Part shown: positions 11,078-36,800 of the stretch, in pieces | Layout of the letters: the number at the start of each line of letters is the position of its first letter | Numbering within the stretch: the stretch's first letter is position 1 | Source: Escherichia coli | Lineage (GTDB): Bacteria > Pseudomonadota > Gammaproteobacteria > Enterobacterales > Enterobacteriaceae | Reading direction: 5' to 3' (one strand) | DNA: 64,000 nucleotides | NCBI RefSeq assembly: GCF_001677475.2 | Contig: NZ_CP015229.1 | Position numbers and translations under genes: made by a program | The notes under the pieces: generated by a model | Database searches by the model: none | What the model was told of the DNA's origin: nothing | The model's input: the letters and a program-made list of their open reading frames with translations, nothing else

Positions 11078-11080
11078 ACC

Positions 11081-11552: not shown

Positions 11553-12214
11553 TGCATAAATCAGTAGCCGGTGAGTTTCAGAAGGAAGTCGATAATACTA
11601 CCGTTCTATTGGACGATATTTTAAGCATTCTCGCGCTGCTTGAGGCTGGCGATTGGTCAGAACATTGCACTAAAACAGAGCTAGGCGGTCGGCTTGAAAG
11701 AGAGATTACACGGCTTGTTGGTGATGCGCAGGAAGCTACAGTCACTAGTTATGAGTTAATCGCTGAAGCCTGGCGTTTGATGGATGGACAAGATCCTAAA
11801 ACAAGCGATTGGCATAGCAAGGCTTCGAAGTATTTAAATTCCAATAGGGTAGAAAAAGTTGATGATGTGAAACCGAAGCCAGTAGACCACGGTTTCCGCG
11901 ATAACTGCGAATGCTCTAGTTGCCAGACCACGGCCCGTATTTGTTCCGAATTGACAGATAAGTCCAGCCTAATCTACGAAGTTAATGTAGGCGGTAATAC
12001 ATGGGTCGAATGCACAAGAGCTGCATACGTAAGAGCAAAAGACAAGGGTGAATTAACCAGAGTTGTTACCAATCACCCAAATAATGAGCTTAAAGATCAC
12101 CAGATTCGAGAACTGGTGAACGAGTTGAGGGATATTGCGGTTCAGTACCACGGAACGCAGCAATTGCGGGAGAAGATTGCCAGAGCAGTGAACAACTCAG
12201 TCCGTAAAAAATAA
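11549..12214 (+). CDS. hypothetical protein
   Basis: 221-aa track ORF; ATGA overlap with the upstream ORF. Confidence 0.6.
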   Translation: MMHKSVAGEFQKEVDNTTVLLDDILSILALLEAGDWSEHCTKTELGGRLEREITRLVGDAQEATVTSYELIAEAWRLMDGQDPKTSDWHSKASKYLNSNRVEKVDDVKPKPVDHGFRDNCECSSCQTTARICSELTDKSSLIYEVNVGGNTWVECTRAAYVRAKDKGELTRVVTNHPNNELKDHQIRELVNELRDIAVQYHGTQQLREKIARAVNNSVRKK

Positions 12215-12427
12215 GCAATAGTACGATAAAGAGGCCCCATGCTCTTGATGGGGCCTGTAGCAACTAGCGTTATGGACGCTGGTTTACGTACTCAATGATC
12301 GCTTTGATAATCGCGAACATCGGCGGCACGATTTTGAACAGTAAGTTAACCATAACAGGTCTCACTTAGTTTTATCGCGCCTAGCTGCAAATACCTTTGG
12401 GCTTGCCTTTGCAGTTGCAATATCTGT

Positions 12428-12620
12428 AGTCGCCAGATACTTACGGCACGATTTCGAGTTAAGGTAAGGTTTTAGAGTCACCAAAAACCTGGACTTAAAT
12501 CTTCTTTGAGAACAACGATGTTTAGTAAATGGTCATTATTACCTGGTATGACCACTCAACGTTTCTTGATGAATCCAGTACATTCGGTTAATCTTAATTC
12601 AGTCGCCAGATACTTATGGC
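12428..12620 (+). repeat. two 20-bp direct repeats AGTCGCCAGATACTTAYGGC (12428-12447 and 12601-12620) in a structured non-coding region
   Basis: 19/20 identical copies 173 bp apart, with several hairpins between and after them; no ORF with a plausible start in 12215-13015. Confidence 0.6.
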
Positions 12621-12653
12621 TCAGGAACAGAGCCGCAAACTCTGTTTCCTCTT

Positions 12654-12685
12654 AAAAAGCCCAGCCTAGTCAACTGGGCTTTTTA
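12654..12685 (+). terminator. rho-independent terminator
   Basis: AGCCCAG-loop-CTGGGCT stem with A-run before and T-run after. Confidence 0.7.
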
Positions 12686-12980
12686 ATGTCTATTTTTAAC
12701 CCAATGAACCTTCAATACCGCAACATCAGTGTCTTGCGAATTAAGATAGTGTGTATAGGTTATACATGCAAGTGCATAACTCTGTGGATAACTCAGGAAG
12801 GAAAAAGTAGCTTCCGCGCAATTTAGGCCAGACAAGGCTTTCGCAAAAGTCAACGGAGAGAAAAAATTTGTTAAAAATAACGTTTGTTGGAATTGTATAT
12901 ATTTATGCCTTTCAATAGTTAGCATCTTATTAACATCTTTTTTAAGAGATAGAGTTCAAAAATATATAGCTTCAACATAT

Positions 12981-18641: not shown

Positions 18642-18658
18642 TTTGCTCTAATAAATTG
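18642..18658 (+). promoter_or_regulatory. C1-repressor operator (Op51-like, heading the immI-like module)
   Basis: TTTGCTCTAATAAATTG, 15/17, immediately after the pacB stop. Confidence 0.65.
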
Positions 18659-18699
18659 TGTTTTTTAACTACCGATGTTACATTGAACCTGACCTCTTG

Positions 18700-18815
18700 C
18701 GCCTTGAGGCATTTTCGGTTTATGCTGATCAGGCACCTCATTAAAACGGGTGCCGGGATTGGCCTCCCGCTTAAGTCTAAGGCGATACAGACGCCGCTCG
18801 CGTCTTTTTTTGTAT
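18700..18815 (+). ncRNA. candidate c4-type antisense regulatory RNA region
   Basis: GC-rich structured stretch ending in hairpin GACGCCGCTCGCGTC plus a T7 run, between the operator and the icd ribosome-binding site; placed by analogy with P1 immI; boundaries approximate. Confidence 0.3.
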
Positions 18816-18976
18816 CGGCGTACACGCACACCTCTACAATGGTGGGCTGTATGGGGCTACCTTCGGGTAGGCTGGTTACCTTGGACGCCAGTAAGGCCAA
18901 CTCCGTACAGTCCACCGCCAGCAAGATTGGTCTCTTCTGCGGTGGTTACATACCAACGTCTAAGGAGGCTGCCATT

Positions 18977-19198
18977 ATGGCTACTACCCCTACCCCAGCT
19001 CACCCTGAATTCATCTGGCGCTTTTACTCCTGCCAGAAACGTCACTATCACTTCGTTATCGCACCAACAGAAGATGAGGCACGTTCTCAGCTTCCGGATG
19101 CTCCCTGTATTTTCTCCGCCCGTTTTTCTACCGATTTGCGCAATTCTCTCAGTTACTGGTGCCCCCCTGTAAACGCTTGTGCTCAGGAGGGACTATGA
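18977..19198 (+). CDS. icd: Icd-like small protein
   Basis: 73 codons; TAAGGAGG 6 nt upstream of the ATG; stop overlaps the ant ATG (ATGA), matching the P1 icd/ant arrangement. Confidence 0.55.
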   Translation: MATTPTPAHPEFIWRFYSCQKRHYHFVIAPTEDEARSQLPDAPCIFSARFSTDLRNSLSYWCPPVNACAQEGL

Positions 19199-20310
19199 GA
19201 ACGTCATTAGTCACCCGTGAAGAGATGATCGAGGCAATTGAACAGCACACTGCTTGTATCAGTACCAGGGATATACCAGGCGTTATAGCCAACTACTTCA
19301 TGATCACCAAACAACTTTACCGGAGAAAGGACAAGAACGCGGTTCACCGCATCCTGCTGTCTGATATCCGCGAATACCTGCTCGAACAGGGGCATCTGAA
19401 TTACGCAACCGTCGCAGCCGAAACACGCAAGGAGGCACACAGAATGAAAGCAACTAACGTTAAATCAGAAAAAGTTCATGCACCTTCAGTTCAGGAGTCA
19501 GAGCTGGTGGTTGTTCAGAATCAGTCTGATGAAATTCCCGTTCTGGAATGGCTGGGAGTGCGTGTAGTGACAACCAAGATCCTTGCTAAGGGGTATGGGA
19601 CCGATGCGGATAACATCAAGAAGAACTTTTCCCGTAATGCTGAACGTTTTTGTGAAGGCAAGCATTTCTATAAAGTTATTGGAGATGATTTGAACAATTT
19701 GCGGGTGACTTTAAGTAACTCACAAAATCCCATCTCTCCTAAAGCCCGCTCACTCATCCTCTGGACGGAACGAGGAGCTGCCCGTCACGCAAAAATGCTC
19801 GAAACAGATCAGGCATGGGCATTCTTTGAAAAACTGGAAGACAGCTACTTCCGACAAAAAGAACAGCAACCGATCGCAATCCCCCAGACGCTTCCAGAAG
19901 CTCTGCGCCTGGCTGCCGAGCTGGCTGAACAAAAGCAACTTCTGGAACAGAAAACCCACCAGCTAAATCAGCAGCTGGTGGCCGCAGCCCCTAAAGTCGA
20001 TTTTGCCGACCGGGTATCAGTGGCTAAGGGGATCCTGATTGGGAATTTTGCAAAGGTTGTTGGACTTAAGCAAAATGCGCTGTTTGCCTGGTTACGGGAG
20101 AACGGCATCCTGATTGCGTCCGGCGGACGTAAAAATGTACCGTTTCAGCAGTACATAAACGCCGGATATTTCACAGTGAGAGAAGTGGTGCTGGATGATG
20201 AAGATGGCTATCAGATACGGCTGACGCCTCAATTAACGGGGAAAGGCCAACAGTGGTTGACGCGTAAACTGCTCGATGCTGGCTTGTTAAAACCGGTGGC
20301 GGCTGAATAA
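19195..20310 (+). CDS. ant: antirepressor (Bro-N/ORF6N-like N-terminus, KilAC/ANT C-terminal domain)
   Basis: 371 aa from ATG 19195 (track ORF starts at 19159); C-terminal KNALFAWLRENGIL...QQYINAGYF is a typical ANT-domain signature. Confidence 0.75.
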   Translation: MRTSLVTREEMIEAIEQHTACISTRDIPGVIANYFMITKQLYRRKDKNAVHRILLSDIREYLLEQGHLNYATVAAETRKEAHRMKATNVKSEKVHAPSVQESELVVVQNQSDEIPVLEWLGVRVVTTKILAKGYGTDADNIKKNFSRNAERFCEGKHFYKVIGDDLNNLRVTLSNSQNPISPKARSLILWTERGAARHAKMLETDQAWAFFEKLEDSYFRQKEQQPIAIPQTLPEALRLAAELAEQKQLLEQKTHQLNQQLVAAAPKVDFADRVSVAKGILIGNFAKVVGLKQNALFAWLRENGILIASGGRKNVPFQQYINAGYFTVREVVLDDEDGYQIRLTPQLTGKGQQWLTRKLLDAGLLKPVAAE

Positions 20311-20342
20311 TGGAAGAATGCCCGGTTGATGCCGGGCATAAT

Positions 20343-21194
20343 TTATTGCGCGCTTTCGGGGTTGTCGTTTACTGGCTGCCCCTTCTTAGTTTTACGGCTG
20401 CGCGTAACTGATGCGGCTGACTTAACCTTTTTCTCTTCGCGAGTGATGGCAATTTGTTTTTTTACATTTTCAATATCTGCCAGGCGATATATTTTTGCTT
20501 GCGGCCAGCGGTCGCAGATGATCGGTTCTATGGAGTCATAAAGGCTAAATTTTGCTTTTTCGAATTCACCGTTGATGATAATTCCATCACGGAGAGTTTC
20601 ATCGCAGATAAACACGCCACACAGTGGCACATGGTAACTAACTGATTTACCATCATTGTAGTTAGGGCTACTGGAAATGTAGTGGACGCGCAGCATTGTT
20701 TCGCTAAAGCCGTGTACGCGCATACGGAATTTTTCATCCTCTGGGTACTGCTTCATTAGCTCTTTTGTTGCTTCCAGGTTCTCTATGTATTTCGCACTGT
20801 GCTCATTGATCCCCGCGCTTTTTTGGATGCGAATGTCCTTATCAATCAGATGAATAATGCGGCCAGCGGTCATGTTGACGCTGTTCACAGCTTCTGTCTG
20901 ATAAGTCGTAACCTTACGTACACCGCGAAGGATGTTAGGCACAGGATATAAAATAGTCTTTGGGATATTGAGGTCTGGGTACTGTTCCAGTTCCCGCGCC
21001 ATTAAAGTCCATTTATCAATTTCAGCCTGAATGCTGTCTGTTTCTTTGAACGGTAGAACGACAACCGGGCGTACAGGACGACCGTCGCTGGCGGCATCAA
21101 CGTGTTGGGCGCGTGCAACAGCTTTTTTTAGAAAGAGATCCCTGAAGCTGACGAACTCCTGGTACAGTTGTTCGCCGTAGACATAATTTATCAT
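20343..21194 (-). CDS. c1: C1 repressor of lysogeny
   Basis: 283 aa MINYVYGEQLYQEFVSFRDLFLKK...; length and sequence match P1 C1 as recalled. Confidence 0.95.
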   Translation of the reverse strand: MINYVYGEQLYQEFVSFRDLFLKKAVARAQHVDAASDGRPVRPVVVLPFKETDSIQAEIDKWTLMARELEQYPDLNIPKTILYPVPNILRGVRKVTTYQTEAVNSVNMTAGRIIHLIDKDIRIQKSAGINEHSAKYIENLEATKELMKQYPEDEKFRMRVHGFSETMLRVHYISSSPNYNDGKSVSYHVPLCGVFICDETLRDGIIINGEFEKAKFSLYDSIEPIICDRWPQAKIYRLADIENVKKQIAITREEKKVKSAASVTRSRKTKKGQPVNDNPESAQ

Positions 21195-22359: not shown

Positions 22360-22755
22360 ATGTTTAATAGCCTGACGGATGCCAAGGTAAACGCCTTACT
22401 TAAGGACGCAAAACAAAAAGCTGCTAACCCTGGAACGAGTGAAAATGAACGTGCTATGGCCGTTGCAATTTGGGAGTTAGCAGAAGAAGTAAAGCGAAAC
22501 CGCATGCAGTACACTCGGGTTTACCAGCAATTTGATGGTGCAAGCTGGAAAGATATCGAAGAGGCTGAATATTCAGCATGCAAAGAAGAAAAAAAGACTG
22601 TTCGGATTTTGCATGAAGCAGCAACTCCAATCACTGTAGAAATCCCCGATCACAGATATTTCGAGAACGATGATCTACCTGGGGATGTGATTCGAATTAT
22701 TGATGAGATACTTCATGAACAAGGCTTAACTGTTAAAATTACGCATAATAAATGA
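22360..22755 (+). CDS. hypothetical protein (131 aa), translationally coupled to cre
   Basis: GAGGTG before the ATG; stop overlaps the cre ATG (ATGA). Confidence 0.55.
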   Translation: MFNSLTDAKVNALLKDAKQKAANPGTSENERAMAVAIWELAEEVKRNRMQYTRVYQQFDGASWKDIEEAEYSACKEEKKTVRILHEAATPITVEIPDHRYFENDDLPGDVIRIIDEILHEQGLTVKITHNK

Positions 22756-23783
22756 CTAAATCGTTAACCGTTCACCAAAATTTGCCTGCATTGCCGGTCG
22801 ATGCAACGAGTGATGAGGTTCGCAAGAACCTGATGGATATGTTCAGGGATCGCCAGGCGTTTTCTGAGCATACCTGGAAAATGCTTCTGTCCGTTTGCCG
22901 GTCATGGGCGGCATGGTGCAAGTTGAATAACCGGAAATGGTTTCCCGCAGAACCTGAAGATGTTCGCGATTATCTTCTATATCTTCAGGCGCGCGGTCTG
23001 GCAGTAAAAACTATCCAGCAACATTTGGGCCAGCTAAACATGCTTCATCGTCGGTCCGGGCTGCCGCGACCAAGTGACAGCAATGCTGTTTCACTGGTTA
23101 TGCGGCGGATCCGAAAAGAAAACGTTGATGCCGGTGAACGTGCAAAACAGGCACTAGCGTTCGAACGCACTGATTTCGACCAGGTTCGTTCACTCATGGA
23201 AAATAGCGATCGCTGCCAGGATATACGTAATCTGGCATTTCTGGGGATTGCTTATAACACCCTGTTACGTATAGCCGAAATTGCCAGGATCAGGGTTAAA
23301 GATATCTCACGTACTGACGGTGGGAGAATGTTAATCCATATTGGCAGAACGAAAACGCTGGTTAGCACCGCAGGTGTAGAGAAGGCACTTAGCCTGGGGG
23401 TAACTAAACTGGTCGAGCGATGGATTTCTGTCTCTGGTGTGGCTGATGATCCGAATAACTACTTGTTTTGCCGGGTCAGAAAAAATGGTGTTGCCTCGCC
23501 ATCACCCACCAGCCAGCTATCAACTCGCGCCCTGGAAGGGATTTTTGAAGCAACTCACCGATTGATTTACGGGGCTAAGGATGACTCTGGCCAGAGGTAC
23601 CTGGCCTGGTCTGGACACAGTGCCCGTGTCGGAGCCGCGCGAGATATGGCCCGTGCCGGAGTTTCAATACCGGAGATCATGCAAGCTGGTGGCTGGACCA
23701 ACGTAAATATTGTCATGAACTATATCCGTAACCTGGATAGTGAAACAGGGGCAATGGTGCGCCTGCTGGAAGATGGCGATTAG
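22752..23783 (+). CDS. cre: Cre tyrosine recombinase
   Basis: 343 aa, near-identical to P1 Cre (...TVHQNLPALPVDATSDEVRKNLMDMFRDRQAFSEHTWKMLLSVCRSWAAWCKLNNRKWFPAEPEDVRDYLLYLQARGLAVKTIQQH...); differs at the N-terminus (MTKSL vs MSNLL) and around ASPSPT. Confidence 0.97.
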   Translation: MTKSLTVHQNLPALPVDATSDEVRKNLMDMFRDRQAFSEHTWKMLLSVCRSWAAWCKLNNRKWFPAEPEDVRDYLLYLQARGLAVKTIQQHLGQLNMLHRRSGLPRPSDSNAVSLVMRRIRKENVDAGERAKQALAFERTDFDQVRSLMENSDRCQDIRNLAFLGIAYNTLLRIAEIARIRVKDISRTDGGRMLIHIGRTKTLVSTAGVEKALSLGVTKLVERWISVSGVADDPNNYLFCRVRKNGVASPSPTSQLSTRALEGIFEATHRLIYGAKDDSGQRYLAWSGHSARVGAARDMARAGVSIPEIMQAGGWTNVNIVMNYIRNLDSETGAMVRLLEDGD

Positions 23784-24392: not shown

Positions 24393-24953
24393 ATGAAAAC
24401 AATCGAACAAAAAATTGAACAGTGCCGCAAGTGGCAGAAGGCAGCCAGAGAACGAGCGATCGCTCGGCAACGGGAGAAGTTGGCTGATCCGGTCTGGCGA
24501 GAATCTCAATATCAGAAAATGCGAGATACTATCGACCGCCGTATCGCTAAACAGAAAGAGCGCCCACCAGCCAGCAAAACGCGGAAAAGCGCGGTAAAAA
24601 TAAAATCTCGTGGCTTGAAGGGGAGAACACCAACGGCGGAGGAACGGCGCATCGCCAATGCTCTTGGCGCTCTCCCCTGCATTGCCTGCTATATGCATGG
24701 AGTAATATCTAATGAGGTGTCTCTGCACCATATCGCCGGTCGTACCGCGCCGGGTTGTCATAAAAAGCAATTGCCACTTTGTAGATGGCACCACCAGCAT
24801 GCAGCTCCGGCTGAAGTAAGAGAAAAATACCCCTGGCTGGTCCCTGTTCATGCCGATGGTGTGGTTGGAGGCAAGAAAGAATTCACCTTGCTGAACAAGT
24901 CAGAGATGGAGTTGCTGGCTGACGCCTATGAAATGGCAAACATCATGCACTAA
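24393..24953 (+). CDS. ref: Ref (recombination enhancement function), HNH endonuclease
   Basis: 186 aa; basic N-terminus and Cys/His HNH core (CIACY...HH...CRWHH). Confidence 0.9.
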   Translation: MKTIEQKIEQCRKWQKAARERAIARQREKLADPVWRESQYQKMRDTIDRRIAKQKERPPASKTRKSAVKIKSRGLKGRTPTAEERRIANALGALPCIACYMHGVISNEVSLHHIAGRTAPGCHKKQLPLCRWHHQHAAPAEVREKYPWLVPVHADGVVGGKKEFTLLNKSEMELLADAYEMANIMH

Positions 24954-25141
24954 TAAATATATTATTTTTAATCTTAAATGATTGACAACTGACAAGTGAC
25001 TTGAGTCAGAATCATCACACGCCCGGTACGGATGGATCCCTTTTCAAATATTCCATGGACGGCACAGTCTGAGTACCGGGCGCTACCTTCAGTTGTATTG
25101 CTAAGCCGCCGCTGGTGGCTTTTCTTTTTGTAGGGGGAGCT

Positions 25142-25783
25142 ATGGATAAGAAAATATGCGTTGTTTCGATGAACGTCGGCAAACCGGCGTCAATGACTGC
25201 TGCATGGATCAACAACGAGCTGATAATGGCTGAGCGGACCAGCTACCCTGAACGCCGCCGCGACATGGAACTCCAGCTGCTGCGCGAATTGCGAGAAAAA
25301 GAGGAAAAGGGTTTTATCGTGCTGGTGGAAGAGGAAAACAGCTTTATTACTGGTCGAGTTGGCCAGCGTGTAAGGTTGCGCGATCCCTTCATGAACGGCA
25401 GGCCGGTACTGATTGAAGCAATGCAGATTTACAAGGAGCTGGAACGCCAGAAAGCGATCAAGTTACCACGCAAGGAGTCCGGCAAGTACATTCTCCATCA
25501 AAGCATCTTCGATTCCGAACACGACAAAAAAGGCGATGAATTTTTCAACATCAACTGGAGCGAAATAACCACAGAGCACGTTCTGACGCTACTATGTTGC
25601 TTTGCAACGGAATACAACAACGTGGTGAGCGCGCACTACATTCAGGCAATGGCTGGTAGGATTAATACGCAGCGTGAGCCCTCGCTGATAGAGCCATTCA
25701 TCAATATTATTAATGCTACTCAACGAATGGGAGAAACACGTGTGCCGCAAGGCTTACTCACAGGTAAATATGATTACCTTTAA
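25142..25783 (+). CDS. hypothetical protein (at the P1 mat position)
   Basis: track ORF 25115-25783 trimmed to ATG 25142, preceded by GGGGGAG. Confidence 0.6.
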   Translation: MDKKICVVSMNVGKPASMTAAWINNELIMAERTSYPERRRDMELQLLRELREKEEKGFIVLVEEENSFITGRVGQRVRLRDPFMNGRPVLIEAMQIYKELERQKAIKLPRKESGKYILHQSIFDSEHDKKGDEFFNINWSEITTEHVLTLLCCFATEYNNVVSAHYIQAMAGRINTQREPSLIEPFINIINATQRMGETRVPQGLLTGKYDYL

Positions 25784-26020
25784 TTTCAAACTTATTACAC
25801 CAAGCAGCTAATTACAAATTACTACTTAAGGTAACCAAAAATTATTATTTGCAAAACACATAAAAAACAAAAACAAAACAATAAAAAACACAAATTAACA
25901 TCAACACCAAATGAAGACATTTTACTAACCAAGCCTCAGCATCTATTACCAGTAGATATAAAGGTGATAAATGGAGGAATTAATAGCACGCATATTAAGC
26001 TGGTTGTTTCATAATCAATA

Positions 26021-26138
26021 ATTGAATAATAATTCAATGCGTCTCCATGATTTTTATGTAACGATGCACATTAATCGCATATATTTGTTGAATGATTTTC
26101 ATTTGAAATTTATTTAAAGTGAATAATTGATTTATTCA
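26021..26138. promoter_or_regulatory. two AT-rich palindromes upstream of the autotransporter gene (candidate operator sites)
   Basis: ATTGAATAATAATTCAAT (26021-26038) and TGAATAATTGATTTATTCA (26120-26138) share TGAATAA/TTATTCA arms. Confidence 0.35.
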
Positions 26139-26267
26139 ACCTCCTTATTTATTATTTTTCCGATTTTGTGCAGCGAAATGCATGAATATTTGCGAGAACA
26201 TAATCACACAGTAAACTAAAACATCTGTTATTATAAATCCGGATAATGTATAAACTCGAGGTTATCT

Positions 26268-29200
26268 ATGTCACTTTCTGTTTATAATAATAAAAAAAAT
26301 AGCTCTTCAGGGGGGAACTCTCCTCGCTTGACCCTACTGGCAGCTATAATCGGCGCATTATTTTCAAATGCTTACGCTTCAACAACTGCTATTAAAATTG
26401 ATAATGATGTTCAAGTTAATAAAGATAACCTCGATATTAATACGGGCAGTAATACAGGAAGTAATGGATATGCGATCTCTGTCACAAATTCAGGTGAACT
26501 AACTACCGAAGGTACAGTGACGTTATCTACAGAAGGTGATAAGGCAAACGGAGTTAATATATCCAGTGGGTCTAAAATTAACTCTCAAGGTGGGATTACA
26601 ATAACCACAAAAGGCAAAAACGCCTCTGGCATTTCACTTGATAATAATTCTTCAATGACTATCGCTAACGGTATGTCAATTACAACAAGTGGGATAAACG
26701 CTACAGGGATTAATGTTGACAAATCTTCACTAACTGTTGAACAAGGTGATATTAACACATCTGGTGTAAATGCTAGTGGTGTTTCTATTTTAAATGGAGG
26801 CCAAGCCAGTTTAAATAAAGTTAACATTACCACATCTGGAGATAATGCCAGAGGTATTGTTAGCTCTGGCATAAATAGCAAAATAGTAATTAGCGACTCA
26901 ACCATTACCACTCTGGGGGATAAAAAACCATCACAAGCATGGGGAGCTCGTGGCATATCTGCCGAAAACAACGGTTATGTTTCACTAACAAATACGCAGA
27001 TTAAAACTGATGGAACAGGGGCTTGGGGAGTATCTGCATCGTCAGCTGGCTCAGCTGAATTAGCTGATGTTCATATTTCCACTTCAGGCCAAAATGGCTA
27101 TGGTTTACGTGCAGATGGCAATAACTCTAGTATATCTGTATCTAAAGGACTCCAGGTAACCACTTCTGGCAAACAAGCTCATGCCGTAACTGCCTCTAAT
27201 AATGGGAATATAAATCTTGGAGTAAATGCATCTCTTGAAACATCAGGGACGCAGGCTAATACCATCCATATCACCGGTGGTAATGGTGGTATAATAACGG
27301 GTGATAGTATCTCAATAAAAACAAATGGCACATCAGCCAAAGGTATATATGTTACGGCTTTAAATCCCTCAGACTCAGCACCTGATTCACGCGTAGAGCT
27401 GACGGGAACATCAACAATCGCCACATTAGGTGATCAGTCAATAGGTGTGTGGGGGCATGGTAAAGTAGCTGATATTAGCTTCGAGCAAATAGCTATTAAT
27501 ACAGCCGGTACTGACTCATACGGTATAAATGCACAAAATGAAGCCACTGTTAATGCCCATACAGCCCAGATTATTACTAAGGGGCTAAACTCATATGGAG
27601 CAACAGCAAATTCAGCTGCAAAAATTACACTTGGTTCTGGTTCATCGATTACAACAAGCGGTGATTATGCTCATGGAATATGGGTCAGTGATGACAATAC
27701 AGTTATTAGTGGCAATAATGCATCCATTCATGTATCAGGAAAAGAGGCTGACTCTGTAGTCGCTGCCAATAATGCAAAAGTTGAGCTTACCCAAGAGAAT
27801 GGGGTGATGATTAGCGAAACTAGATATAACTTTAATGCTAATGGTGGTGCTATTTCCGCCACGTTAGATGGCAGCCAAATAAAGAATAACGGCACATTCA
27901 TCTTCTCAACCAGTAATGATGCCGGTGTGGGAGGGAACGTTGATGTTACAGTCAAGAATACTTCCTTTAATGGCGATATTCGCGCTGATAGTAACAGTAT
28001 TGCCAATCTTTCATTAGAAAATTCCAACTGGACTGGAACCGCGTATAATGGTGGCATTGTTAATTTAGCTAAAAACAGCATCTGGAATATGGTTAGCGAT
28101 TCGGATGTTGCTCATCTTAATAATAATGGCTCTATATATTTGGGCAGCGATGCAAAAAACACTTTAACAATTAATGGTGATTATACTGGCGAAAATGGCT
28201 ATATCTACTTTTCAGGCGTTCTTGGTGACGACACATCTCCAATCGATAAGTTGGTTGTAAAAGGAAATACAGAGGGTAAAACCTTTGTTTCCGTAAACAA
28301 CGTTGGTGGTATTGGGGCACAAACACTCAATGGCATCAACATTATCCAGGTTGATGGTCAATCTAACGGTGACTTTGTACAAGTTGGCCGAATTGCGGCT
28401 GGTGCTTATGATTACACTCTTGGGCGGGGGCAAGGCGATAAAAATGGCAACTGGTACCTAACTAGTGGCAAACAACCTGAGGATCCAACTCCGAACCCGG
28501 ACCCGGAGCCAAATCCGACCCCAACACCAGGTGACAATGATCTTCGCCCAGAAGCTGGTAGCTATACGGCAAACATTGCTGCTGCAAATACTATGTTCGT
28601 GACTCGCCTACACGAACGTCAGGGGCAAATGCAGTATACCGATGTGATTACCGGTGAATTGAAAACTACAAGCATGTGGATGCGTCATGAGGGTGGACAC
28701 AATCGCTGGCGCGACGGAAGCAACCAGTTAAAAACACAAAGCAACCGTTATGTTATGCAACTGGGCGGCGATATAGCACAGTGGGGTTGGAATAAAACGG
28801 ATCGCTGGCATCTTGGCTTAATGGCCGGATACGGTAATGACCACAATAATACAGAATCTGTGCGCACAGGATATCGTTCAAAAGGTAGTGTGAATGGTTA
28901 CAGCACTGGGCTGTATGCCACCTGGTATGCCAATGATGAAACACATAACGGGGCTTACCTAGACTCTTGGGCACAGTACAGCTGGTTTGATAACTATGTT
29001 AAAGGTGATGGATTGCAGAGTGAATCCTGGAAATCAAAAGGACTTACTGCATCACTGGAAACTGGTTATACCTGGAAGGCTGGTGAGTTTACGGGCAGCC
29101 AAGGTGGTTTGAATGAGTGGTATGTCCAGCCTCAGGCTCAGGTCATCTGGATGGGTGTTAAAGCGGACGAACATCGCGAAAGCAACGGTACCCGTGTTGA

Positions 29201-29522
29201 AAGCACCGGAGATGGTAATGTCCGTACCCGTCTGGGCGTGAAAACATGGATTAAAAGCCACAGTCGTATAGATGAAGGCAAATCCCGGGAATTCAGCCCA
29301 TTTGTGGAAGTGAACTGGCTGCATAACACCCGTGATTTTGGTACTCGTATGAATGGTGTGACGGTACATCAGGACGGTGCCCGTAATATCGGAGAAATAA
29401 AAACCGGTGTTGAGGGGCAGATAAATTCCAGACTGAACCTGTGGGGGAATGTAGGTGTTCAAGTCGGTGACAAAGGGTATAACGACACATCTGCAATGTT
29501 GGGTGTGAAGTATACCTTCTGA
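26268..29522 (+). CDS. AIDA-I/Ag43-type autotransporter (adhesin-like passenger, C-terminal beta-barrel)
   Basis: 1084 aa; N-terminal signal peptide, Gly/Ser/Thr-rich repetitive passenger, Pro-rich linker PTPNPDPEPNPTPTP, C-terminal barrel ending ...LGVKYTF; AT-rich codon usage unlike flanking P1-type genes. Confidence 0.85.
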   Translation: MSLSVYNNKKNSSSGGNSPRLTLLAAIIGALFSNAYASTTAIKIDNDVQVNKDNLDINTGSNTGSNGYAISVTNSGELTTEGTVTLSTEGDKANGVNISSGSKINSQGGITITTKGKNASGISLDNNSSMTIANGMSITTSGINATGINVDKSSLTVEQGDINTSGVNASGVSILNGGQASLNKVNITTSGDNARGIVSSGINSKIVISDSTITTLGDKKPSQAWGARGISAENNGYVSLTNTQIKTDGTGAWGVSASSAGSAELADVHISTSGQNGYGLRADGNNSSISVSKGLQVTTSGKQAHAVTASNNGNINLGVNASLETSGTQANTIHITGGNGGIITGDSISIKTNGTSAKGIYVTALNPSDSAPDSRVELTGTSTIATLGDQSIGVWGHGKVADISFEQIAINTAGTDSYGINAQNEATVNAHTAQIITKGLNSYGATANSAAKITLGSGSSITTSGDYAHGIWVSDDNTVISGNNASIHVSGKEADSVVAANNAKVELTQENGVMISETRYNFNANGGAISATLDGSQIKNNGTFIFSTSNDAGVGGNVDVTVKNTSFNGDIRADSNSIANLSLENSNWTGTAYNGGIVNLAKNSIWNMVSDSDVAHLNNNGSIYLGSDAKNTLTINGDYTGENGYIYFSGVLGDDTSPIDKLVVKGNTEGKTFVSVNNVGGIGAQTLNGINIIQVDGQSNGDFVQVGRIAAGAYDYTLGRGQGDKNGNWYLTSGKQPEDPTPNPDPEPNPTPTPGDNDLRPEAGSYTANIAAANTMFVTRLHERQGQMQYTDVITGELKTTSMWMRHEGGHNRWRDGSNQLKTQSNRYVMQLGGDIAQWGWNKTDRWHLGLMAGYGNDHNNTESVRTGYRSKGSVNGYSTGLYATWYANDETHNGAYLDSWAQYSWFDNYVKGDGLQSESWKSKGLTASLETGYTWKAGEFTGSQGGLNEWYVQPQAQVIWMGVKADEHRESNGTRVESTGDGNVRTRLGVKTWIKSHSRIDEGKSREFSPFVEVNWLHNTRDFGTRMNGVTVHQDGARNIGEIKTGVEGQINSRLNLWGNVGVQVGDKGYNDTSAMLGVKYTF

Positions 29523-29544
29523 ACTAAATAGCATCTAAGAACAA

Positions 29545-29571
29545 AGAGCAGAACCATGGATGGACTGCTCT
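29545..29571 (+). terminator. possible terminator hairpin after the autotransporter gene
   Basis: AGAGCAG-loop-CTGCTCT stem; T-run weak. Confidence 0.3.
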
Positions 29572-29626
29572 TTACCATGACACCGATATTCCATTATTTC
29601 TATCTTTTGATATATATATTAACAAA

Positions 29627-29971
29627 ATGAATAATAAAAAAGAAACTTGTTATATAAAAGCACATATAGAAAGGCATGATATTACAGTTCATGTGTGGAT
29701 ATCTGCATCATTGACAGAAGCTGAATGCAGCGTACTTGAGTTATTATTAAAGGGATATAATATCACTCAGATATCAAAGTCCCGATTTCGCAGCATTAAA
29801 ACAGTTTCTTTTCAGAAATACAAAATATACAAAAAGTTAGGAATTCATAATGACATCACATTCTGGGTAGATATTTCATTATCCCCTTATGTGAGAATAA
29901 AGTTCTCCGGTAAAGATAGTACGTTCAAGAAATGTATATTACCATGTCCTAATTACATCTCGATGCAGTGA
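29627..29971 (+). CDS. LuxR/GerE-type helix-turn-helix regulator
   Basis: 114 aa; LTEAECSVLELLLKGYNITQISKSRFRSIKTV matches the LuxR-type HTH signature; AT-rich. Confidence 0.65.
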   Translation: MNNKKETCYIKAHIERHDITVHVWISASLTEAECSVLELLLKGYNITQISKSRFRSIKTVSFQKYKIYKKLGIHNDITFWVDISLSPYVRIKFSGKDSTFKKCILPCPNYISMQ

Positions 29972-30111
29972 TAACTGCACTCAAACAATATCTACCTATA
30001 CAATATAAATACTCCATGACCAAGAAACGCATGAAGATATGGAACTTCACAAGTTTGCTCTTCATGGAGTATGGCTATCAGAGGGGCCAGTAACCGCAAC
30101 CTTTAAGTATA

Positions 30112-30360
30112 TCAATCTATATTCAGGAGCAATGCATTATCTATGATGATTTGCTCCCATTCTTCGAATGCCCGGTCGCGGACGCCCTGGGGAACGCTGT
30201 TAGTTTTGAAATCGACGACCGTCCGCCATTTTCCGTCCGGACGGTACATCCGCAGAGCTTTACTTCCCCCTTCCCTGCGCACCTCAACGTTATGCTTATC
30301 AGCAAACTCTTGTAATGCTCGTAGCGTCCCATGCTTTACTGTGTAGTATCGCTTTTTCAA
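30112..30360 (-). CDS. small basic protein (at the P1 lxc/bof position)
   Basis: 82-aa track ORF at the end of the darB-containing minus-strand gene string; assignment by size and position only. Confidence 0.45.
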   Translation of the reverse strand: MKKRYYTVKHGTLRALQEFADKHNVEVRREGGSKALRMYRPDGKWRTVVDFKTNSVPQGVRDRAFEEWEQIIIDNALLLNID

Positions 30361-30797
30361 GTTTTCTCTCCAGCCTGTGCTAAGGCTTCAACTTCCAAAT
30401 CGTAAGACTCAAACTCATAGTCCTGGTCGTCAACCTCTTCAGGCACTGGCAGTAAATGCCAGGCTGAGTATATCTGACCATTATCAAAACGCTCCTGGCT
30501 GTAGAGCGTCGCGGCTATGAGCGTCAGCGCCGGGCGGTCATAACGGTAAATTTTGCGAACGTCACGGTCAACGAGACGACCGAAATTACCATAACCGCGC
30601 TCCAGTAATAATTTTTTAATTTCCGGCCAGTATGGGCCGTAGCTGCGGTACAGGCGGGGATTTTTCAGTAATCGCCCGCGTAGCCCTGACAGGAAGAAAT
30701 CAACGTATTCGTCTTCTGTCTTTCCTAACAACGCTGTACGGAGTACCGCCTCAAGATATGTTTTATTCGGTTTTATTGTATCAGATAGTGTGGCCAT
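30357..30797 (-). CDS. hypothetical protein (at the P1 ulx position)
   Basis: 146-aa track ORF; 4-nt overlap with the downstream gene. Confidence 0.5.
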   Translation of the reverse strand: MATLSDTIKPNKTYLEAVLRTALLGKTEDEYVDFFLSGLRGRLLKNPRLYRSYGPYWPEIKKLLLERGYGNFGRLVDRDVRKIYRYDRPALTLIAATLYSQERFDNGQIYSAWHLLPVPEEVDDQDYEFESYDLEVEALAQAGEKT

Positions 30798-30830: not shown

Positions 30831-33800
30831 TTATGCGTATTGTTGGATGACGGCCAGAACGTCCGCCACGTTGTGTTTTGTCTCGATAATCCACCAGTTA
30901 CCCGGGAAATCGCTGTTCTTCGCCTTCGCTGGCAGCCAGCGAGCGCCGAATTTCGCCTTGATTGCGTCTTTCGCACGGAAAAGAATGCCTTTCATGCCGG
31001 ACGCCTCCTGAAGCCCAAATACCTCACCAGCGGCGAATTTTGGTGCGTACATCATCTTCAAGTCGGCGGTGGATACGCGATAATTCAGACCAAGAGACTG
31101 AGCTATGCTGGTGGCATCACCCTGTATTGATGATAACTCTTCTTGTTTCTCGTTTCTGGCGGCAATTTCTTCCTCCGTGATGTTGCCTAGGGCCAGGTTT
31201 ATCCGATCAGCGTCGGCCTGTTTCTCTTCATCAGTGCGCCCGGCAAGTGCCGTGTTAATTCTCTGCAATATCTCCACATGATTCTTGCGCATGCTGAGCA
31301 ATTCCGGCGTAACCTCGTTAAGGTCCACCAGCCCAAGAATGGCAAGGTCAGAAAACATTGATACCAGGTTGTAGGTCATGCGATAGCTGAGTTGGCCATA
31401 GGCTGATGGCAACTGCACCGAATCCATTTTATAGGCATCCATAAATTTAGAGCCTTCGTTTACGACATCCGCAATTGCAGGTGTGATTTTCCCTGTGGTG
31501 GCGGCCTCCCTGATTGCTGTTACCCACGATTGAGTCAGCGCGGCGACTGCATGATTCAGATTGGCTTTCCGTTCTGCTGCAATGCGCGCGCTTGCTGCGT
31601 CCATTGCCTGCTTGATCTCATCTTTATTGCTGTAAATGTCAATGGTGCCAAACTGTGTTGTGGTGATCTCATAATCTGACGACCGGAACTCATGGGTACC
31701 GAAAATAGCATTGGTGACCTCAAGTTCAGAATCCCCGTTACGAGTAGCCCCCTGGCTTGTTTTCTCCGGCATTCTGGCGATCGCATCCGCTATTTTCTCC
31801 TGAATTGCTTCAGGAGATAGCGTATCTCCGTATGACGCGATTACATCGCCATAATTGGAGCCAAACAGTTCAGTCAGGAATACTTCTGCCAAACGGACCT
31901 GGCGGTTATTCCCTTCCGACATCATACCAAGCACCCATTTTGCAATTGACGACTTCAGCGCGCCGTCACGGCGATCCGGGTAAACCGCATGCTTCAGTGG
32001 GTTCGTATAGGTACCGACAAAATCAATGCTATAGCCTGACTCTGTAGTCTGAACGCCGTATGAGTCAGTGATTTTGATCATGCCGCGCTGCTGGAAACGG
32101 TAGAAATCGTCACAGGAAATGATGTCGTTAATCCCGGCGATGGAGACGCCACCACTGATTTTCTGCATAACAGCATCTTCATCGGGAGTTACATCCACCT
32201 GTTTATCCAGCGTCTTCACATCCCAGTTACCCGATTTGGTGCCTTTGAAGGTAAAGATAATCTCCACGTCTGCGCGCTGGCTGTCGAAGTCCAGCGACTT
32301 AATGCGAACGATATCACCGGCACAATCGTAGTATTGGCCTACACGCCATGAGCGATCGCCGATAACAAGGAACTCATTCGCATGGTTAACCAGATCAGGA
32401 TCAACATCCAGAATGCCTTTATTTATTGCATCCTCCACCAGCGGGCGCAGGCGTTTGATATCCGTCGCGGCCTTCTGAGTACGGTTCAATAATTTCTCAT
32501 AGCGGGAAATGGCTTGAGAGATATTAGCCTTGCGCTGAATGGCGCTTTTCAACGACGCGCGATACTGTGCTAACAACATACGGTCTGTGTGATGGACACT
32601 CCCCCAGCGGGCCTTCCAGTCTGCGTTATCAGCTGCTTTGGCCATTACCGCCTGTTTGAATTTAGCTACCTCGTCGGTGCTCTTTTCAAATTCCGCTTTG
32701 CTTCGCTCTAATTCAGCGGTAAGTACCTCCACATCCTCGCCAGCTGCGTGCTGCGCCTTGATGTAGTTCTGAAGGTCGATAGTAGCCTGTTCTTTCTGGC
32801 GAGCGCGTTGCGCGGCTTTCGCCTTATCCATTTGAACCTGCATCATTGCCAGACGTTCGCCATCATCCTTAGCGGTATACATCTGCATTTCGATCATATC
32901 GTTGGCGTCGGCGTTCTCCATTTCTGACTTATCTGAACGGAGGATATCGGAGATCCAGCCTGCTTTACGCTTCAGCGTCTTAAGTCGGTATTCATCGAAA
33001 GAACCCTTGCCGCAGTAGTAATGAACGCGAACGCTTGCACGGTTGGAGCCAACTCGGGCACCGCGACCGTTACGCTGTGCGATACTGGCTGGTGTCCATG
33101 GCAACGTCAGATGATGGATGTCAGTCGTTCCTCGATGCAGGTTGATACCCACCTCTGCCTTTTTGTTGCAGATGATGATCGGAGTCCAGCCCTCCTGGAA
33201 GTCGGCTGCAATCTTTTCCAGACCGCCCAACGACATTTCATTTTGCTGCGCGATATAGGCGTCATACAGAGCCATTTGCTCGTTGTATTTCGCTATCTGT
33301 GCATCTGTTGGTTCATCCGGTAGCTCTTTCGGCGGTTTAACAGCTTTCAGTTTCTGACCGGTTTTGCCTGCCTCGGCAACCGTCTGAGCATTCAGGATCC
33401 CCACCTTTGAAGGTTCAAGGTTAAGAGCATTGCAGATAATGCGTTTGAGCTTCTGGTGTTGCGTTTTTTCATCGGTGAAGATGATTTGCTTACCTTCCGG
33501 GAAAAACTCCTTCAGCGTGGCGATCAGCTTCGCGTATTTGGGCGTAACGGGGTGAGTTACGGTCTGTTCGTCAATGCCAAACTTGGCCAGGCGCTTATTC
33601 ACTTCCTGCTCAAACGCTTCCGGAACCTGCAACTGAATAAACTCGCCCTTATCTATCAGGGAGTATTGCGATTGCTGCGTGATTGAATCATCACTGTCGT
33701 CGTCTTCGCTGGTGGCTTGTTTAGGCAAACTGTCCGCCAGCTGCTGCACCGCATCGGCGTACTCCGGCAGGAAACGATAGGTGATCCGGCGATAGTACAG

Positions 33801-36800
33801 GTCCATGTCAGTACATACGCGGTCCATATCCCTGATTATTGAGAAGATCGGACGGGCTTTCTCGTGCTCAATCACGCCGTCTTCATTAACCGAGGTCGTT
33901 ACGCCATTGTTGGCTTTTGCTGCCGCTTCCGCCTGCTGACGCAATTCTTCATACGCCGCCAGTTGTTCTTCAGTAAGTGGTGCATCCTGCTGGTGTTCGT
34001 CCAGCTCCGGGATCTCCACGGTATCCTTAACGTCTTCCGCCGTTTTAAGCGTTACCCAGCGATGGAATATACCGCGCAGCGCATCAAGGTTTTCAAAGCC
34101 CACCAGCGCCATTTTTTCTTCAACTTCACCGCTGATTTTCTGTACCGTTTCCAGCCTGGTCTTGCCGAAGAATTTAACGAAGTCATCAGGACCGTAGATC
34201 CCCATCTTCTGCCAGTATTCCTTCGGCAGAACATGAGAAAGCATGTTGTATGCATCGATCGGGGTGTTAACGACTGGCGTTGCAGTCAGGAGAACCGGTC
34301 CGCGCCCGCCATTCTTTTTCATCAGGTACGCGTTTTTAATTGCCATATCCCGCGCCGATTGCGCCACCGCACTGGTGGGCAGATAGGCCAGTTGTGACGC
34401 TTCGCGACCATTTTTATAGCTATTGCGGTAGTTGTGGCCTTCGTCGGCGATCACGCTGTCGAAGCCCATATCCTCAAAGTACGGATACTTCTCTGCTTTT
34501 TCGGTACCGGTATCTGAATACTCCGACAATACCCGGCGACGCGCCGCCTCTTTGCGATGGGAATCGGAATCCATTGCGCTGGCCACACGTCCGGCAGCAA
34601 CGAAGTCATAAAGCATGTCTTGTGCATGCTCATCTACGGTGTCATCACGTAGCGGAATGCGGGCGTATTGTTCTTTGGTAAACACGACTGCACGGTAATT
34701 TGAGTGCGGGATCGCATTCATCCGCGCCGTGATAGTGGCTTCATCTGCCAGCTTAAGAGCATCGCGCATAACTGGAGTGCCATCAGCACCAAGAACAGGT
34801 TTACCGTTCTCATCGAGCACCGGCACCTGGCGAATCTGATCGCCATCCATCAGCACATCAAGACCGACGAACAGGTAGTTACTGAATGCCTCTTCACTCA
34901 GGAATTCTTTTGCTTCGTAATACCAGTTTTCCAGCACTGATTTAGGCACTACATACGCAGTACGGGTGGAGCGACCGTTCTCATAGTTGAACGCCTCAAG
35001 TGCCAGCGCGGTCGTGGTTTTACCCAGCCCGGTGCCGAAGCCCAGGATGCCGCGCCCATCTTCGGACAGTCGGCGCACCTCGCTATTCTGGTAATCAAAT
35101 GGCTGACGCTTACCGCTTAATCCCTTCAACCCAAGCGGATCGCCAGAGTGTTCATACGGGATATTGCTATTGAACACATCGTTGTATTTGGCAACCAGCT
35201 CATCGTAGCGATCGTGCGTCTTGATCCACTTATTGAACTGGTCCTCAAGCAGTGCCATCTGCTCGCGGTAGCCGTTCGCCGTCGCGCTATCTTTGCCACC
35301 GATACGCGCACCATTGAGATACTTTTCCAGCTGTGCCGGGAACCCGGTCGCGTTTTCACCTGATTTACGGTCCCACTCGTAGCGGATCTCGCCTGTTTCT
35401 TTATCCTTGCGCTGGACGACACCGTATCGGTGCCCGACGAACAGACCATCACCACCGTGATAGGTGTCAGAAACCATTTCGTCGCCTTCCAGCTGCACTG
35501 ACTGCACATAGCGCAGATCCGGATAGCCGTTTTTCTGCAAAAACTCCAGAATGACGGAGCGGTCGAACCAACGGCTATTGAGCTTAAAGCGGATATTCTC
35601 TGCTGGCGTCTTGATGCGCTTCTCTTCGATCGCTGCCAGCTGATTAAGGACGTTGTTCTTTACTGGACCGTCGGGGAGTGTGGCAAGGAATTCCTGTTTT
35701 GGAGCCACTATCTCGTTAATGTCGCCGCTGGTGGCGCGGGCGAACGGAACAATCCCGCCATACGGTGAAACCGCAATACCAGGGGTGCTGGCCAATAAAT
35801 TAAGCAACTCTTCATCACTGGCTGGCAGTTCGCCGGTAAACGCAAGGCGGAAATCATCGAGCTGGATTGGATCGCGGGTAAGATCGCTATAGAGATAACG
35901 CAGGGTGTCCTGATAGCTGGTGGAGTCATAACTGGCGCTGGAATCATGCGTAACCAGCTTTCCTGTCAGCTCGTCAGAAATAGTGCCATCCAGCTTAATT
36001 GCCCCACGGAAAGCAAACCAGGCGCGCGCACCGCTTCCCGATAATTTAGCTATCGGACCGCGACCGGGGTTACCAAAACGGTCAATCTCTGCCTGCAAAC
36101 GGGATACCAGAGAAAGGCGCTTCTGTTCGATTTGTTCAGCACTATGCCCGGCGGCCTTCATATCCTGATATTCAATTAACATCCGGCCAATCATCGCCCC
36201 GCGATACAAGCGTTCACGGTATTTTTCAGGCTGGCTGTTAATCCAGTCCACCAGCTGCACCATATCGTCGCTGATTGATGTGGTGTACTTATCGCGGACA
36301 TTTGCCATCTGGGTAAATGTCATACCGAGACGGCCTTCTGTTGTAGTCAGGTTACGCTGAAGAGCCTCCCAGCTATCCGCGCCATAACTGGCAGCATCAA
36401 TCTTAAGCTCCTTACCAGCATCAGCTTCAATCCAGCGACCACCAGCATATTTTTGCCATACGCCATTAATCAGGCGCATTTCCCCTTCATCAACAACATC
36501 TGCGGTCGGTGACGGTTCAGCCATATCGAGCAAAGACCAGTCGATACGACTTTCGAAACGATGAATCAGCTTCGCTTTAAGAGCCTGGTTATCAATCTGC
36601 CCGTCGGCACGAACCTCAATACGCCCCTGGAAGCCCTTTTCCTGGGTACCATGAACAAACCGGCGGCCATCCTTTTCAAACCACTTGCCAGAAATAAACG
36701 TTGGCCAAAGCACATTTGCCGATTCAAGAGTGCTTTCATCCACCAGGGGGATTTTCTCAGCCATCTCTGCCGGATGTTTGCGCATCAGCACCACATCAAC

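Follow-up and report, generated by a model that had tools for sequence, protein, structure and literature searches.

A foreign autotransporter-regulator module at the mat-lxc variable site of a P1-like phage-plasmid in Escherichia coli

The mat-lxc Site and Its Cargo

We analyzed a stretch of 64,000 nucleotides from Escherichia coli (contig NZ_CP015229.1, assembly GCF_001677475.2), hereafter the window, which is a P1-like phage-plasmid with the gene order cra, cre, c8-like, ref, mat, cargo, lxc, ulx and darB. The cargo comprises an AT-rich leader, a gene for a large autotransporter of 1084 amino acids (aa) and a gene for a 114-aa regulator of the GerE/LuxR type. We interpret this foreign, AT-rich segment as an adhesin module of two genes, lodged in the mat-lxc hotspot after horizontal acquisition, and the most informative result of its analysis is that the family of the small regulator travels at the 3' end of adhesin loci.

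To the left of the cargo lie cre (22752-23783), ref (24393-24953) and mat (25115-25783). The right-hand backbone anchor is lxc (30112-30360, minus strand), encoding the modulator of C1, which is followed by ulx (30357-30797) and darB (30831-37598), both likewise on the minus strand. The site is empty in phage RCS47, with a mat-lxc spacing of 39 bp, and in phage P1 it holds the EcoPI res and mod genes of a type III restriction-modification (R-M) system, as the first-pass annotation of this DNA had stated. Homology between the window and RCS47 breaks off at 25656 and returns at 30121, so the exchanged segment (25657-30120) is slightly larger than that annotation had drawn it and takes in the last ~42 codons of mat. 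In this variable 3' end of the gene (25657-25783, plus strand) the guanine-cytosine content at third codon positions (GC3) falls from 0.60 to 0.38. The C-termini of mat vary with the type of cargo, and the boundaries agree with those in other P1 relatives, where homology likewise breaks within the 3' end of mat and is rejoined at the lxc stop codon. All the features first ascribed to the insert between mat and the lxc, ulx and darB genes were recovered at the positions given, in a region that is neither syntenic nor compositionally uniform with P1 relatives.

The leader, which spans the interval from the end of mat to the start of the autotransporter gene (25784-26267, plus strand), measures 484 bp, close to the ~480 bp first estimated, and has a GC content of 0.275. 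The corresponding values are 0.40 for the autotransporter passenger, 0.49 for its barrel and 0.32 for the LuxR gene, with 0.48-0.52 in the flanks; along the large open reading frame (ORF) the GC content remains at 0.37-0.43 over the first two thirds and becomes backbone-like (0.48) only in the last third. GC3 follows the same course (passenger 0.29, barrel 0.45, regulator 0.31, as against 0.48-0.57 in cre, ref, ulx, lxc and darB). Relative synonymous codon usage correlates with that of the backbone at 0.12 for the passenger and -0.17 for the regulator, compared with 0.69 for cre and 0.98 for darB, the backbone reference set consisting mostly of darB itself. These profiles bear out the claim that base composition and codon usage differ sharply from the backbone, and together with the insertion at a variable site they support horizontal acquisition of the segment.

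A Complete Type Va Autotransporter

The large ORF (26268-29522, plus strand) encodes a protein identical to WP_244585966.1, which is present in E. coli assemblies. It is a complete and intact classical (type Va) autotransporter with an AIDA-I-type transport unit, in which a signal, a beta-helix with an autochaperone and a barrel can all be recognized. The signal peptide (aa 1-37; 26268-26378, plus strand) was identified by inspection and as a helix in the AlphaFold2 (AF2) model; its N-terminus, MSLSVYNNKKNSSSGGNSPRLTLLAAIIGALFSNAYA followed by STT, displays the three regions of a Sec signal, with K9, K10 and R20 in the n-region, LTLLAAIIGALF as the h-region and a predicted cleavage between AYA and S. 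The passenger forms a right-handed beta-helix of ~690 residues (aa ~42-732; 26379-28472, plus strand) and ends in an AC_1 autochaperone (aa 612-718; 28101-28421, plus strand; PF18883, E 2.5e-27). A Pro-rich disordered linker, PEDPTPNPDPEPNPTPTP, and a barrel-plugging alpha-helix (aa 761-775) come next in the AF2 model (28473-28670, plus strand), the length of the linker varying among alleles of 1084-1096 aa. The C-terminal beta-barrel translocator (aa 802-1084; 28671-29519, plus strand) matches PF03797 (Autotransporter) over aa 803-1062 with an E-value of 8e-44, and the generic NCBIfam barrel model TIGR01414 with 412 bits against a cutoff of 16.

The AF2 model, built from 33 homologues, has a mean predicted local distance difference test score (pLDDT) of 88.4 and shows a signal helix (21-35), an uninterrupted beta-helix (42-732) with pLDDT mostly above 90, a disordered linker of low pLDDT (738-754), the helix 761-775 and the barrel (802-1083). 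Using Foldseek, the barrel and linker were superposed on the AIDA-I transport unit (4mee) with a TM-score of 0.96, a root-mean-square deviation of 1.4 Å and 38% identity, while the passenger matched pertactin (1dab), Ag43 (7koh) and IcsA (5ke1/3ml3). A phmmer search of PDB sequences gave matches to 4mee, IcsA and Vag8. The signal peptide (inspection and AF2) and the C-terminal barrel (Pfam, AF2 and Foldseek), on which the first assignment of this ORF hinged, are thus both present.

That assignment had been to the AIDA-I/Ag43 type, and it stands for the architecture: the cargo protein shares with AIDA-I, TibA and Ag43 the type Va organization, the Sec signal, a beta-helix passenger, AC_1, a Pro-rich linker and a 12-strand barrel. 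It does not stand for orthology, for a heptosyltransferase partner or for GATC sites in the leader. The score against the NCBIfam AIDA-I model NF033176 is 304.8 bits with a cutoff of 1200, and the other family models are missed as well (MisL 521/1297, YfaL 215/1459, ShdA 189/2249, ECSE_1600 family 588/2335, score/cutoff). No AIDA or pertactin repeat was found in the passenger by Pfam, and the protein is not orthologous to AIDA-I, Ag43, MisL, YfaL or ShdA. The AIDA-I and TibA loci include the heptosyltransferases Aah and TibC, whereas between mat and lxc there is no further plus-strand ORF of at least 50 aa, and so no aah or tibC gene. Likewise, Ag43 is governed by a Dam/OxyR switch, whereas no GATC site occurs between 25601 and 26473; Ag43-like control of the autotransporter was rejected because the leader lacks such sites.

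The start codon at 26268 is preceded, 6 nt upstream, by the Shine-Dalgarno sequence GAGG (26258-26261, plus strand), and because this is kept in all alleles we favor the long start over the shorter ones in databases; the shorter annotation of one database protein (P0074) is a different start call and not a frameshift. Codons 9-16 contain an A8 tract (26292-26299) and a G6 tract (26310-26315, plus strand). An otherwise identical allele in GCA_018683295.1 (locus L019) has A6 in place of A8, which shifts the frame. The two tracts are a possible site of slipped-strand ON/OFF switching, although this single variant could equally be an ordinary inactivating mutation.

In phage collections the autotransporter is matched at the level of the barrel, in phages GER2 and phi456, and the passenger is unmatched. 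The C-terminal half of the protein also matches phrog_15824 (E 2e-221), which is labelled 'tail fiber protein proximal subunit', and the GER2 homologue is annotated as 'long tail fiber proximal subunit'. It appears that autotransporter genes in phage records were given this label by error and that the error has been propagated.

The Regulator and Its Family

The regulator gene (29627-29971, plus strand) lies 104 bp 3' of the autotransporter gene on the same strand. An identical database protein (P0066) carries a precomputed PF00196 match, the helix-turn-helix (HTH) region occupies aa 27-80 (29705-29866, plus strand), and NCBIfam models match residues 26-80 to the C-terminal DNA-binding parts of RcsB, BglJ, UvrY, FimZ and CsgD. 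The best match among solved structures is the N-domain of PdeL (YahA), with residues 7-85 aligned to PdeL 4-82 (E 1e-15, 43% identity over 77 aa), followed by RcsB. SrgD (orf7 of pSLT, 115 aa) is 47% identical over the 53 aa of the HTH (E 8e-17) and 29% identical over the whole alignment. The regulator, PdeL, SrgD and RcsB have the recognition-helix motif RSxKT(I/V)SxQK in common, and Q63 and K64 are invariant in the family. The protein, in which 26 aa precede the HTH, has no receiver, autoinducer-binding or EAL domain; the ORF ends at 114 aa with 140 bp left before lxc, so there is no fused EAL. The first assignment as a LuxR/GerE regulator, upheld by PF00196 and by the RcsB, BglJ and PdeL matches, can accordingly be refined to a stand-alone HTH protein of the PdeL-N-domain/SrgD-like kind. 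An AF2 model of the regulator from a 9-sequence alignment was unusable (pLDDT 49) and we make no structural claim from it.

By tblastn, relatives of the regulator were detected on 158 PLSDB plasmids of Escherichia, Salmonella, Citrobacter and Shigella, and none in IMG/VR viral contigs. Across many contexts both the length (111-124 aa) and the sequence of the regulators are conserved, and in 10 of the 11 distinct contexts inspected the gene is the direct 3' neighbor of an adhesin locus and shares its strand. The three P1 cargo alleles described below and two IncF plasmids have an autotransporter gene before it. The E. coli M8 plasmid A and C. rodentium pCROD1 carry an Aah-like heptosyltransferase and an AIDA-like autotransporter ahead of it, so that the same small-regulator family stands directly 3' of TibA- and AIDA-like genes on plasmids other than this one; on a Salmonella IncHI1 plasmid TibC-TibA are followed by the regulator and then by a separate EAL gene. 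The related loci L022, L023 and L024 all contain heptosyltransferase genes. Pef-like chaperone-usher operons ending in the regulator make up the remaining adhesin contexts, and the eleventh is a 1.6-kb contig in which only the regulator and then an EAL gene are visible.

Besides the P1 cargo alleles, the family occurs at the mat-lxc site of the P1-like IncY plasmid pEA4_97 of E. albertii (NZ_CP117679.1; locus L027, 1-6747), where a Pef-like operon, an SrgA-like DsbA and a 315-aa protein of unknown function are followed by a regulator that adjoins lxc. This regulator has 113 aa and is 67.5% identical to that of the window. With this fimbrial cassette next to lxc, the P1 hotspot hosts a second kind of adhesin cargo with the same regulator family at its end. 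Further Pef-like fimbrial loci with the regulator family are L010-L013. The family appears in three forms: alone, followed by a separate EAL ORF of ~256-269 aa, and, on plasmids, as fused PdeL-like LuxR-EAL proteins; L014 (4-1346), L023 (7001-8566) and plasmid hits H177-H188 are among the examples. These forms suggest domain fission or loss from a pdeL-like ancestor.

In the open-access full text of the literature we found no description of adhesin cargo at the P1 mat-lxc site, nor any account of this family of regulators as generally accompanying adhesin loci at the 3' end; searches on P1-like elements with autotransporters or adhesins, and on the WP accessions, returned nothing relevant. The ~115-aa PdeL/SrgD-like regulators are a recurring and apparently uncharacterized family 3' of many plasmid adhesin loci, including those of TibA and AIDA-like proteins. 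As a candidate link between adhesion and motility in E. coli, Salmonella and Citrobacter, they are concrete enough to be tested.

Three characterized systems can be compared with the cargo. PdeL (PDB 7pk5) is a LuxR-EAL transcription factor and cyclic di-GMP (c-di-GMP) phosphodiesterase of E. coli K-12, whose HTH is homologous to that of the window regulator, with the Gln-Lys pair kept. Its EAL domain provides catalysis, c-di-GMP sensing and dimer/tetramer formation, whereas the regulator has no such domain and would thus be c-di-GMP-blind if it bound PdeL-type sites. PdeL targets fliFGHIJK, sslE and pdeL, binds AT-rich promoter DNA, competes with H-NS, represses fliF and relieves silencing by H-NS at its own promoter (bioRxiv 10.1101/2022.01.19.477023, 10.1101/2021.10.01.462762). 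SrgD resembles the regulator in length (115 and 114 aa), in belonging to the LuxR family and in being encoded 3' of an adhesin operon; the pef locus, however, encodes fimbriae and PefI, whereas the cargo has an autotransporter and no PefI partner, and the similarity is confined to the HTH. PefI-SrgD repress flagellar expression (PMC3224193). The ipuR-upaE locus of uropathogenic E. coli CFT073 likewise joins two genes, one for a LuxR-type regulator and one for an autotransporter adhesin, a likeness at the level of gene type. Its gene order is reversed, with the regulator first, and its expression is under an invertible promoter element that has its own recombinases, of which the cargo has none. 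In the ON state of ipuR-upaE motility is lower and adhesion higher (PMC6083910).

We consider it probable that the cargo confers lysogenic conversion, providing an adhesin with a coupled regulator that shifts the lysogen to a sessile, adherent lifestyle rather than defending it. As in other members of the family, the autotransporter would be exported by Sec via its 37-residue signal peptide, BAM would place its 12-strand barrel in the outer membrane, and the ~690-residue passenger would be threaded outward, folding from the autochaperone domain. The lysogen would gain a surface adhesin or aggregation factor, in the manner of characterized AIDA-I-type passengers. Most likely the regulator would tie adhesin expression to host behavior through repression of flagellar genes, in the way of PefI-SrgD and PdeL; in addition or alternatively, it may counter H-NS at the promoter of the module, as PdeL does at pdeL. 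We propose the link to flagella because both characterized relatives touch flagellar genes, and because the family accompanies many unrelated adhesin promoters, for which a conserved host target is more parsimonious than an operator at each locus. From the shared recognition helix it might be speculated that the regulator is a partner of RcsB, like RcsA, BglJ and MatA.

Diversity, Selection and Distribution of the Cargo

At the same P1 site the two-gene cargo is found as three diverged alleles, namely those of the window, of CP056895.1 and of a contig of GCA_031507945.1. Nucleotide identity to the window in the barrel is 97-99% for CP056895.1 and 89-97% for GCA_031507945.1, and the divergence is a mosaic, the passenger being 81-100% identical in patches and the regulator region 71-77%. 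Comparison of the three alleles gave a ratio of nonsynonymous to synonymous divergence (dN/dS) of ~0.26 in the passenger, 0.05-0.07 in the barrel and 0.11-0.16 in the regulator, which places both genes under purifying selection. Synonymous divergence (dS) is far higher in the regulator (1.1-1.5) than in the adjacent autotransporter (0.09-0.32), so the two genes have separate histories, pointing to module shuffling.

Among ~700 PLSDB records with P1 flanks the cargo is found in one (CP056895.1, an IncY plasmid of wastewater E. coli) at 88-90% identity, and it is absent from all 19 matching phage records and from all of the 5426 complete genomes of E. coli that were searched. The two protein clusters (at 90%) that hold the P1-associated autotransporters nevertheless comprise ~96 distinct sequences, many of them on contigs of 93-99 kb, the size of a P1 plasmid, and for this reason we regard the cargo as a recurrent minority occupant of the site.

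The rarity of the cargo among P1-like plasmids could also mean that it is a silent, decaying remnant of a larger adhesin island, silenced by H-NS and functionless, with the regulator a truncated pdeL-like gene that has lost its EAL domain. The extreme AT-richness, the frameshifted A6 allele in one assembly and the existence of relatives with a separate EAL ORF or as fused LuxR-EAL proteins, which suggest domain loss, would fit such a history. Against it, both ORFs are intact and under purifying selection across three diverged alleles, regulators of similar length are conserved in many contexts, ~96 distinct protein variants occur, many on contigs of P1-plasmid size, and the Shine-Dalgarno sequence and the promoter-proximal region are kept. 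We hold decay to be very unlikely, and return to an active adhesin module as the reading we prefer.

A chromosomal paralogue of the autotransporter (1037 aa, 69% aa identity, ~250 variants) is found at the distal end of CP4-type islands (L003, L006-L008), directly after cbeA/cbtA/yeeW-like genes, a position analogous to that of ypjA in CP4-57. In L006-L008 the islands adjoin yicS-side genes (MFS, EamA, lipoprotein-9, YicS), a region which we take to be selC-adjacent.

Leader and Expression Signals

The distal half of the leader is poorly conserved among the three cargo alleles (51-74% identity) and the proximal ~180 bp are kept. No terminator-like site was found on the plus strand from mat to the autotransporter start. 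A sigma-70-like promoter candidate for the autotransporter, TTGATT-17-TATTAT (26127-26155, plus strand), scored 9/12 in a consensus scan; its -35 hexamer is invariant and its -10 hexamer nearly invariant in the three alleles. The scan returned 10 promoter-like sites against 15 in shuffles, fewer than expected and with no statistical support, so it is for its conservation that this candidate is retained. Downstream of the autotransporter stop lies a hairpin with a 9-bp stem and no U-run (29543-29573, plus strand; dG -13.9 kcal/mol, z -2.15). This is a weak terminator at most, so read-through into the regulator gene is possible. A longer hairpin (30009-30072; dG -28.6 kcal/mol, z -3.56) separates the convergent regulator gene and lxc, and with 0 of 200 shuffles folding equally well it is a probable transcriptional insulator or terminator.

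Xenogeneic silencing acts on AT-rich DNA, and H-NS controls several E. coli autotransporters. The leader is probably under silencing of the H-NS type, with its own conserved promoter, and the regulator gene is probably at least partly co-transcribed with the autotransporter.

The leader also contains a perfect 7-4-7 palindrome, ATTGAAT-N4-ATTCAAT (26021-26038), a candidate operator. It is the sole match in the window, also when two mismatches are allowed, and taken alone it is not significant, as matches with no more than two mismatches turn up in 32 of 100 window shuffles. In the alleles of CP056895.1 (L001) and GCA_031507945.1 (L009) the arms are kept and the spacer varies. We rejected the palindrome as an operator common to the regulator family, because it is missing ahead of the other autotransporters linked to a regulator, from those parts of the fimbrial loci that were inspected and from the promoter of pdeL. 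Two ATTGAAT half-sites noticed by eye upstream of K-12 pdeL were judged too weak.

These features bear on the alternative that the regulator is a dedicated activator or anti-silencer of the autotransporter promoter, without host targets, which binds the leader palindrome and displaces H-NS. The low GC content of the leader (27%), the retention of the palindrome arms with a varying spacer, and the precedent of PdeL, the closest solved relative, which anti-silences H-NS at its own promoter, are all compatible with this idea. On the other hand, the family accompanies unrelated adhesin promoters, and the palindrome is missing from the upstream regions of those autotransporters. The far higher dS of the regulator than of the autotransporter and leader-proximal DNA argues against tight co-evolution of protein and operator, and an activator encoded downstream cannot start a silenced promoter without other input. 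We judge a purely local anti-silencer to be rather unlikely.

The Hotspot, Defense and the Proposed Function

In a spread sample of P1-like PLSDB hits the usual occupants of the mat-lxc interval are SIR2, RelA/SpoT, PIN/DUF4935, DUF2971, GNAT and YaaC genes, and others hold KilAC/Icd, an EAL protein with an AraC-type regulator, or nothing. R-M or candidate defense genes are thus typical of this hotspot, whereas adhesin cargo is rare there.

About one fifth of the sampled P1-like plasmids carry the EAL/AraC cargo, consisting of a stand-alone 229-aa EAL protein, in which the EVL and DDFGSG motifs are present, and a 240-aa AraC-type regulator (L016, CP085518.1, 1142-2787; L017, NZ_AP028823.1, 1142-4050). 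This is a regulatory or c-di-GMP cargo and not classical defense, and it is unrelated in sequence to the regulator of the window. The possibility that the window regulator is a remnant of this EAL cargo was rejected, since neither the 229-aa EAL protein nor the HTH of the 240-aa AraC-type protein is related to it.

Given the company of presumptive defense genes and of the P1 type III R-M system, the cargo might itself be a module for phage exclusion or defense, acting through receptor masking or through a PdeL-like protein that rewires the PdeL/c-di-GMP switch for phages such as N4. PdeL-controlled c-di-GMP states do alter phage sensitivity (bioRxiv 10.1101/2021.10.01.462762; PMC8669472), and the frequent EAL-domain gene at the same site can be read in this light. 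In PADLOC-DB 2.0, however, the autotransporter falls in no family and the regulator gives only a weak CARF-HTH match (E 5.5e-6) confined to the HTH. On IncF and IncHI plasmids, homologous pairs of autotransporter or fimbriae with the regulator belong to ordinary adhesin loci and not to defense islands, and the hotspot also holds KilAC/Icd, EAL with AraC, and fimbriae. A defensive role is highly improbable in our estimation; the absence of a PADLOC hit for the autotransporter and the occurrence of homologous pairs outside defense contexts leave lysogenic conversion, proposed in the first-pass annotation in preference to defense, as the better-supported inference.

Several points weigh against lysogenic conversion by an adhesin with a coupled regulator. 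Every functional step is read from homology and gene neighborhood, and most other occupants of the hotspot in the sample resemble defense genes. The passenger, being below every NCBIfam orthologue cutoff, has no close characterized adhesin. SrgD works together with PefI, and the cargo contains no PefI-like ORF; the LuxR gene of ipuR-upaE could not be linked to any phenotype (PMC6083910). The regulator gene has no evident Shine-Dalgarno sequence, and the leader palindrome does not recur upstream of other LuxR-linked autotransporters. Finally, the autotransporter-regulator pair is not obligatory, because the chromosomal paralogue occurs without the regulator.

A more far-reaching interpretation, to which we give a slim chance, is that the regulator mimics the DNA binding of PdeL while being blind to c-di-GMP (or is an RcsB partner), so that elements delivering adhesins seize the motile/sessile switch together with c-di-GMP-dependent phage receptors, and the hotspot swaps adhesin cassettes. 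If this were true, whole cassettes, autotransporter or fimbriae, would be exchanged between mat and a conserved regulator gene on the lxc side, and the cargo would be a switch of lifestyle and phage sensitivity and not merely an added adhesin.

Short of that, the cargo is real yet a fairly ordinary accessory 'lifestyle' cargo, mechanistically unsurprising, with parts that belong to known kinds. P1-like phage-plasmids are known mostly for resistance and defense genes. The module described here indicates that the res/mod hotspot of P1 can deliver complete adhesin modules by transduction or lysogeny, an autotransporter in this case and Pef-like fimbriae in E. albertii, and colonization, aggregation and biofilm behavior of the lysogens could change. 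Virulence-type genes account for ~0.23% of phage-plasmid genes (PMC10879196).

Other Features of the Window

Two copies of an IS21-family insertion sequence, both on the minus strand (2267-4728 and 45725-48134), flank ~41 kb that include the adhesin cargo. The first is located at the start of a VRR-NUC gene and has its istA split into two ORFs. The second is intact, encoding IstA of 498 aa and IstB of 250 aa, and by comparison with CP056895.1 it splits a ddrB-like gene of ~995 aa into the ORFs 48130-50346 and 44943-45737.

Relative to CP056895.1, the closest complete relative, the segments 10441-12766, 18646-20343 and 55644-56560 show no or weak homology, the last of them being within the tail-fibre region. 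Matches to phrog_874 and phrog_20174, phage families without a known function, were obtained for ORFs 10349-11077 and 11549-12214. Between cra and cre, which abut in CP056895.1, the window has an extra 131-aa ORF (22360-22755) with a full-length match to phrog_20152, also of unknown function.

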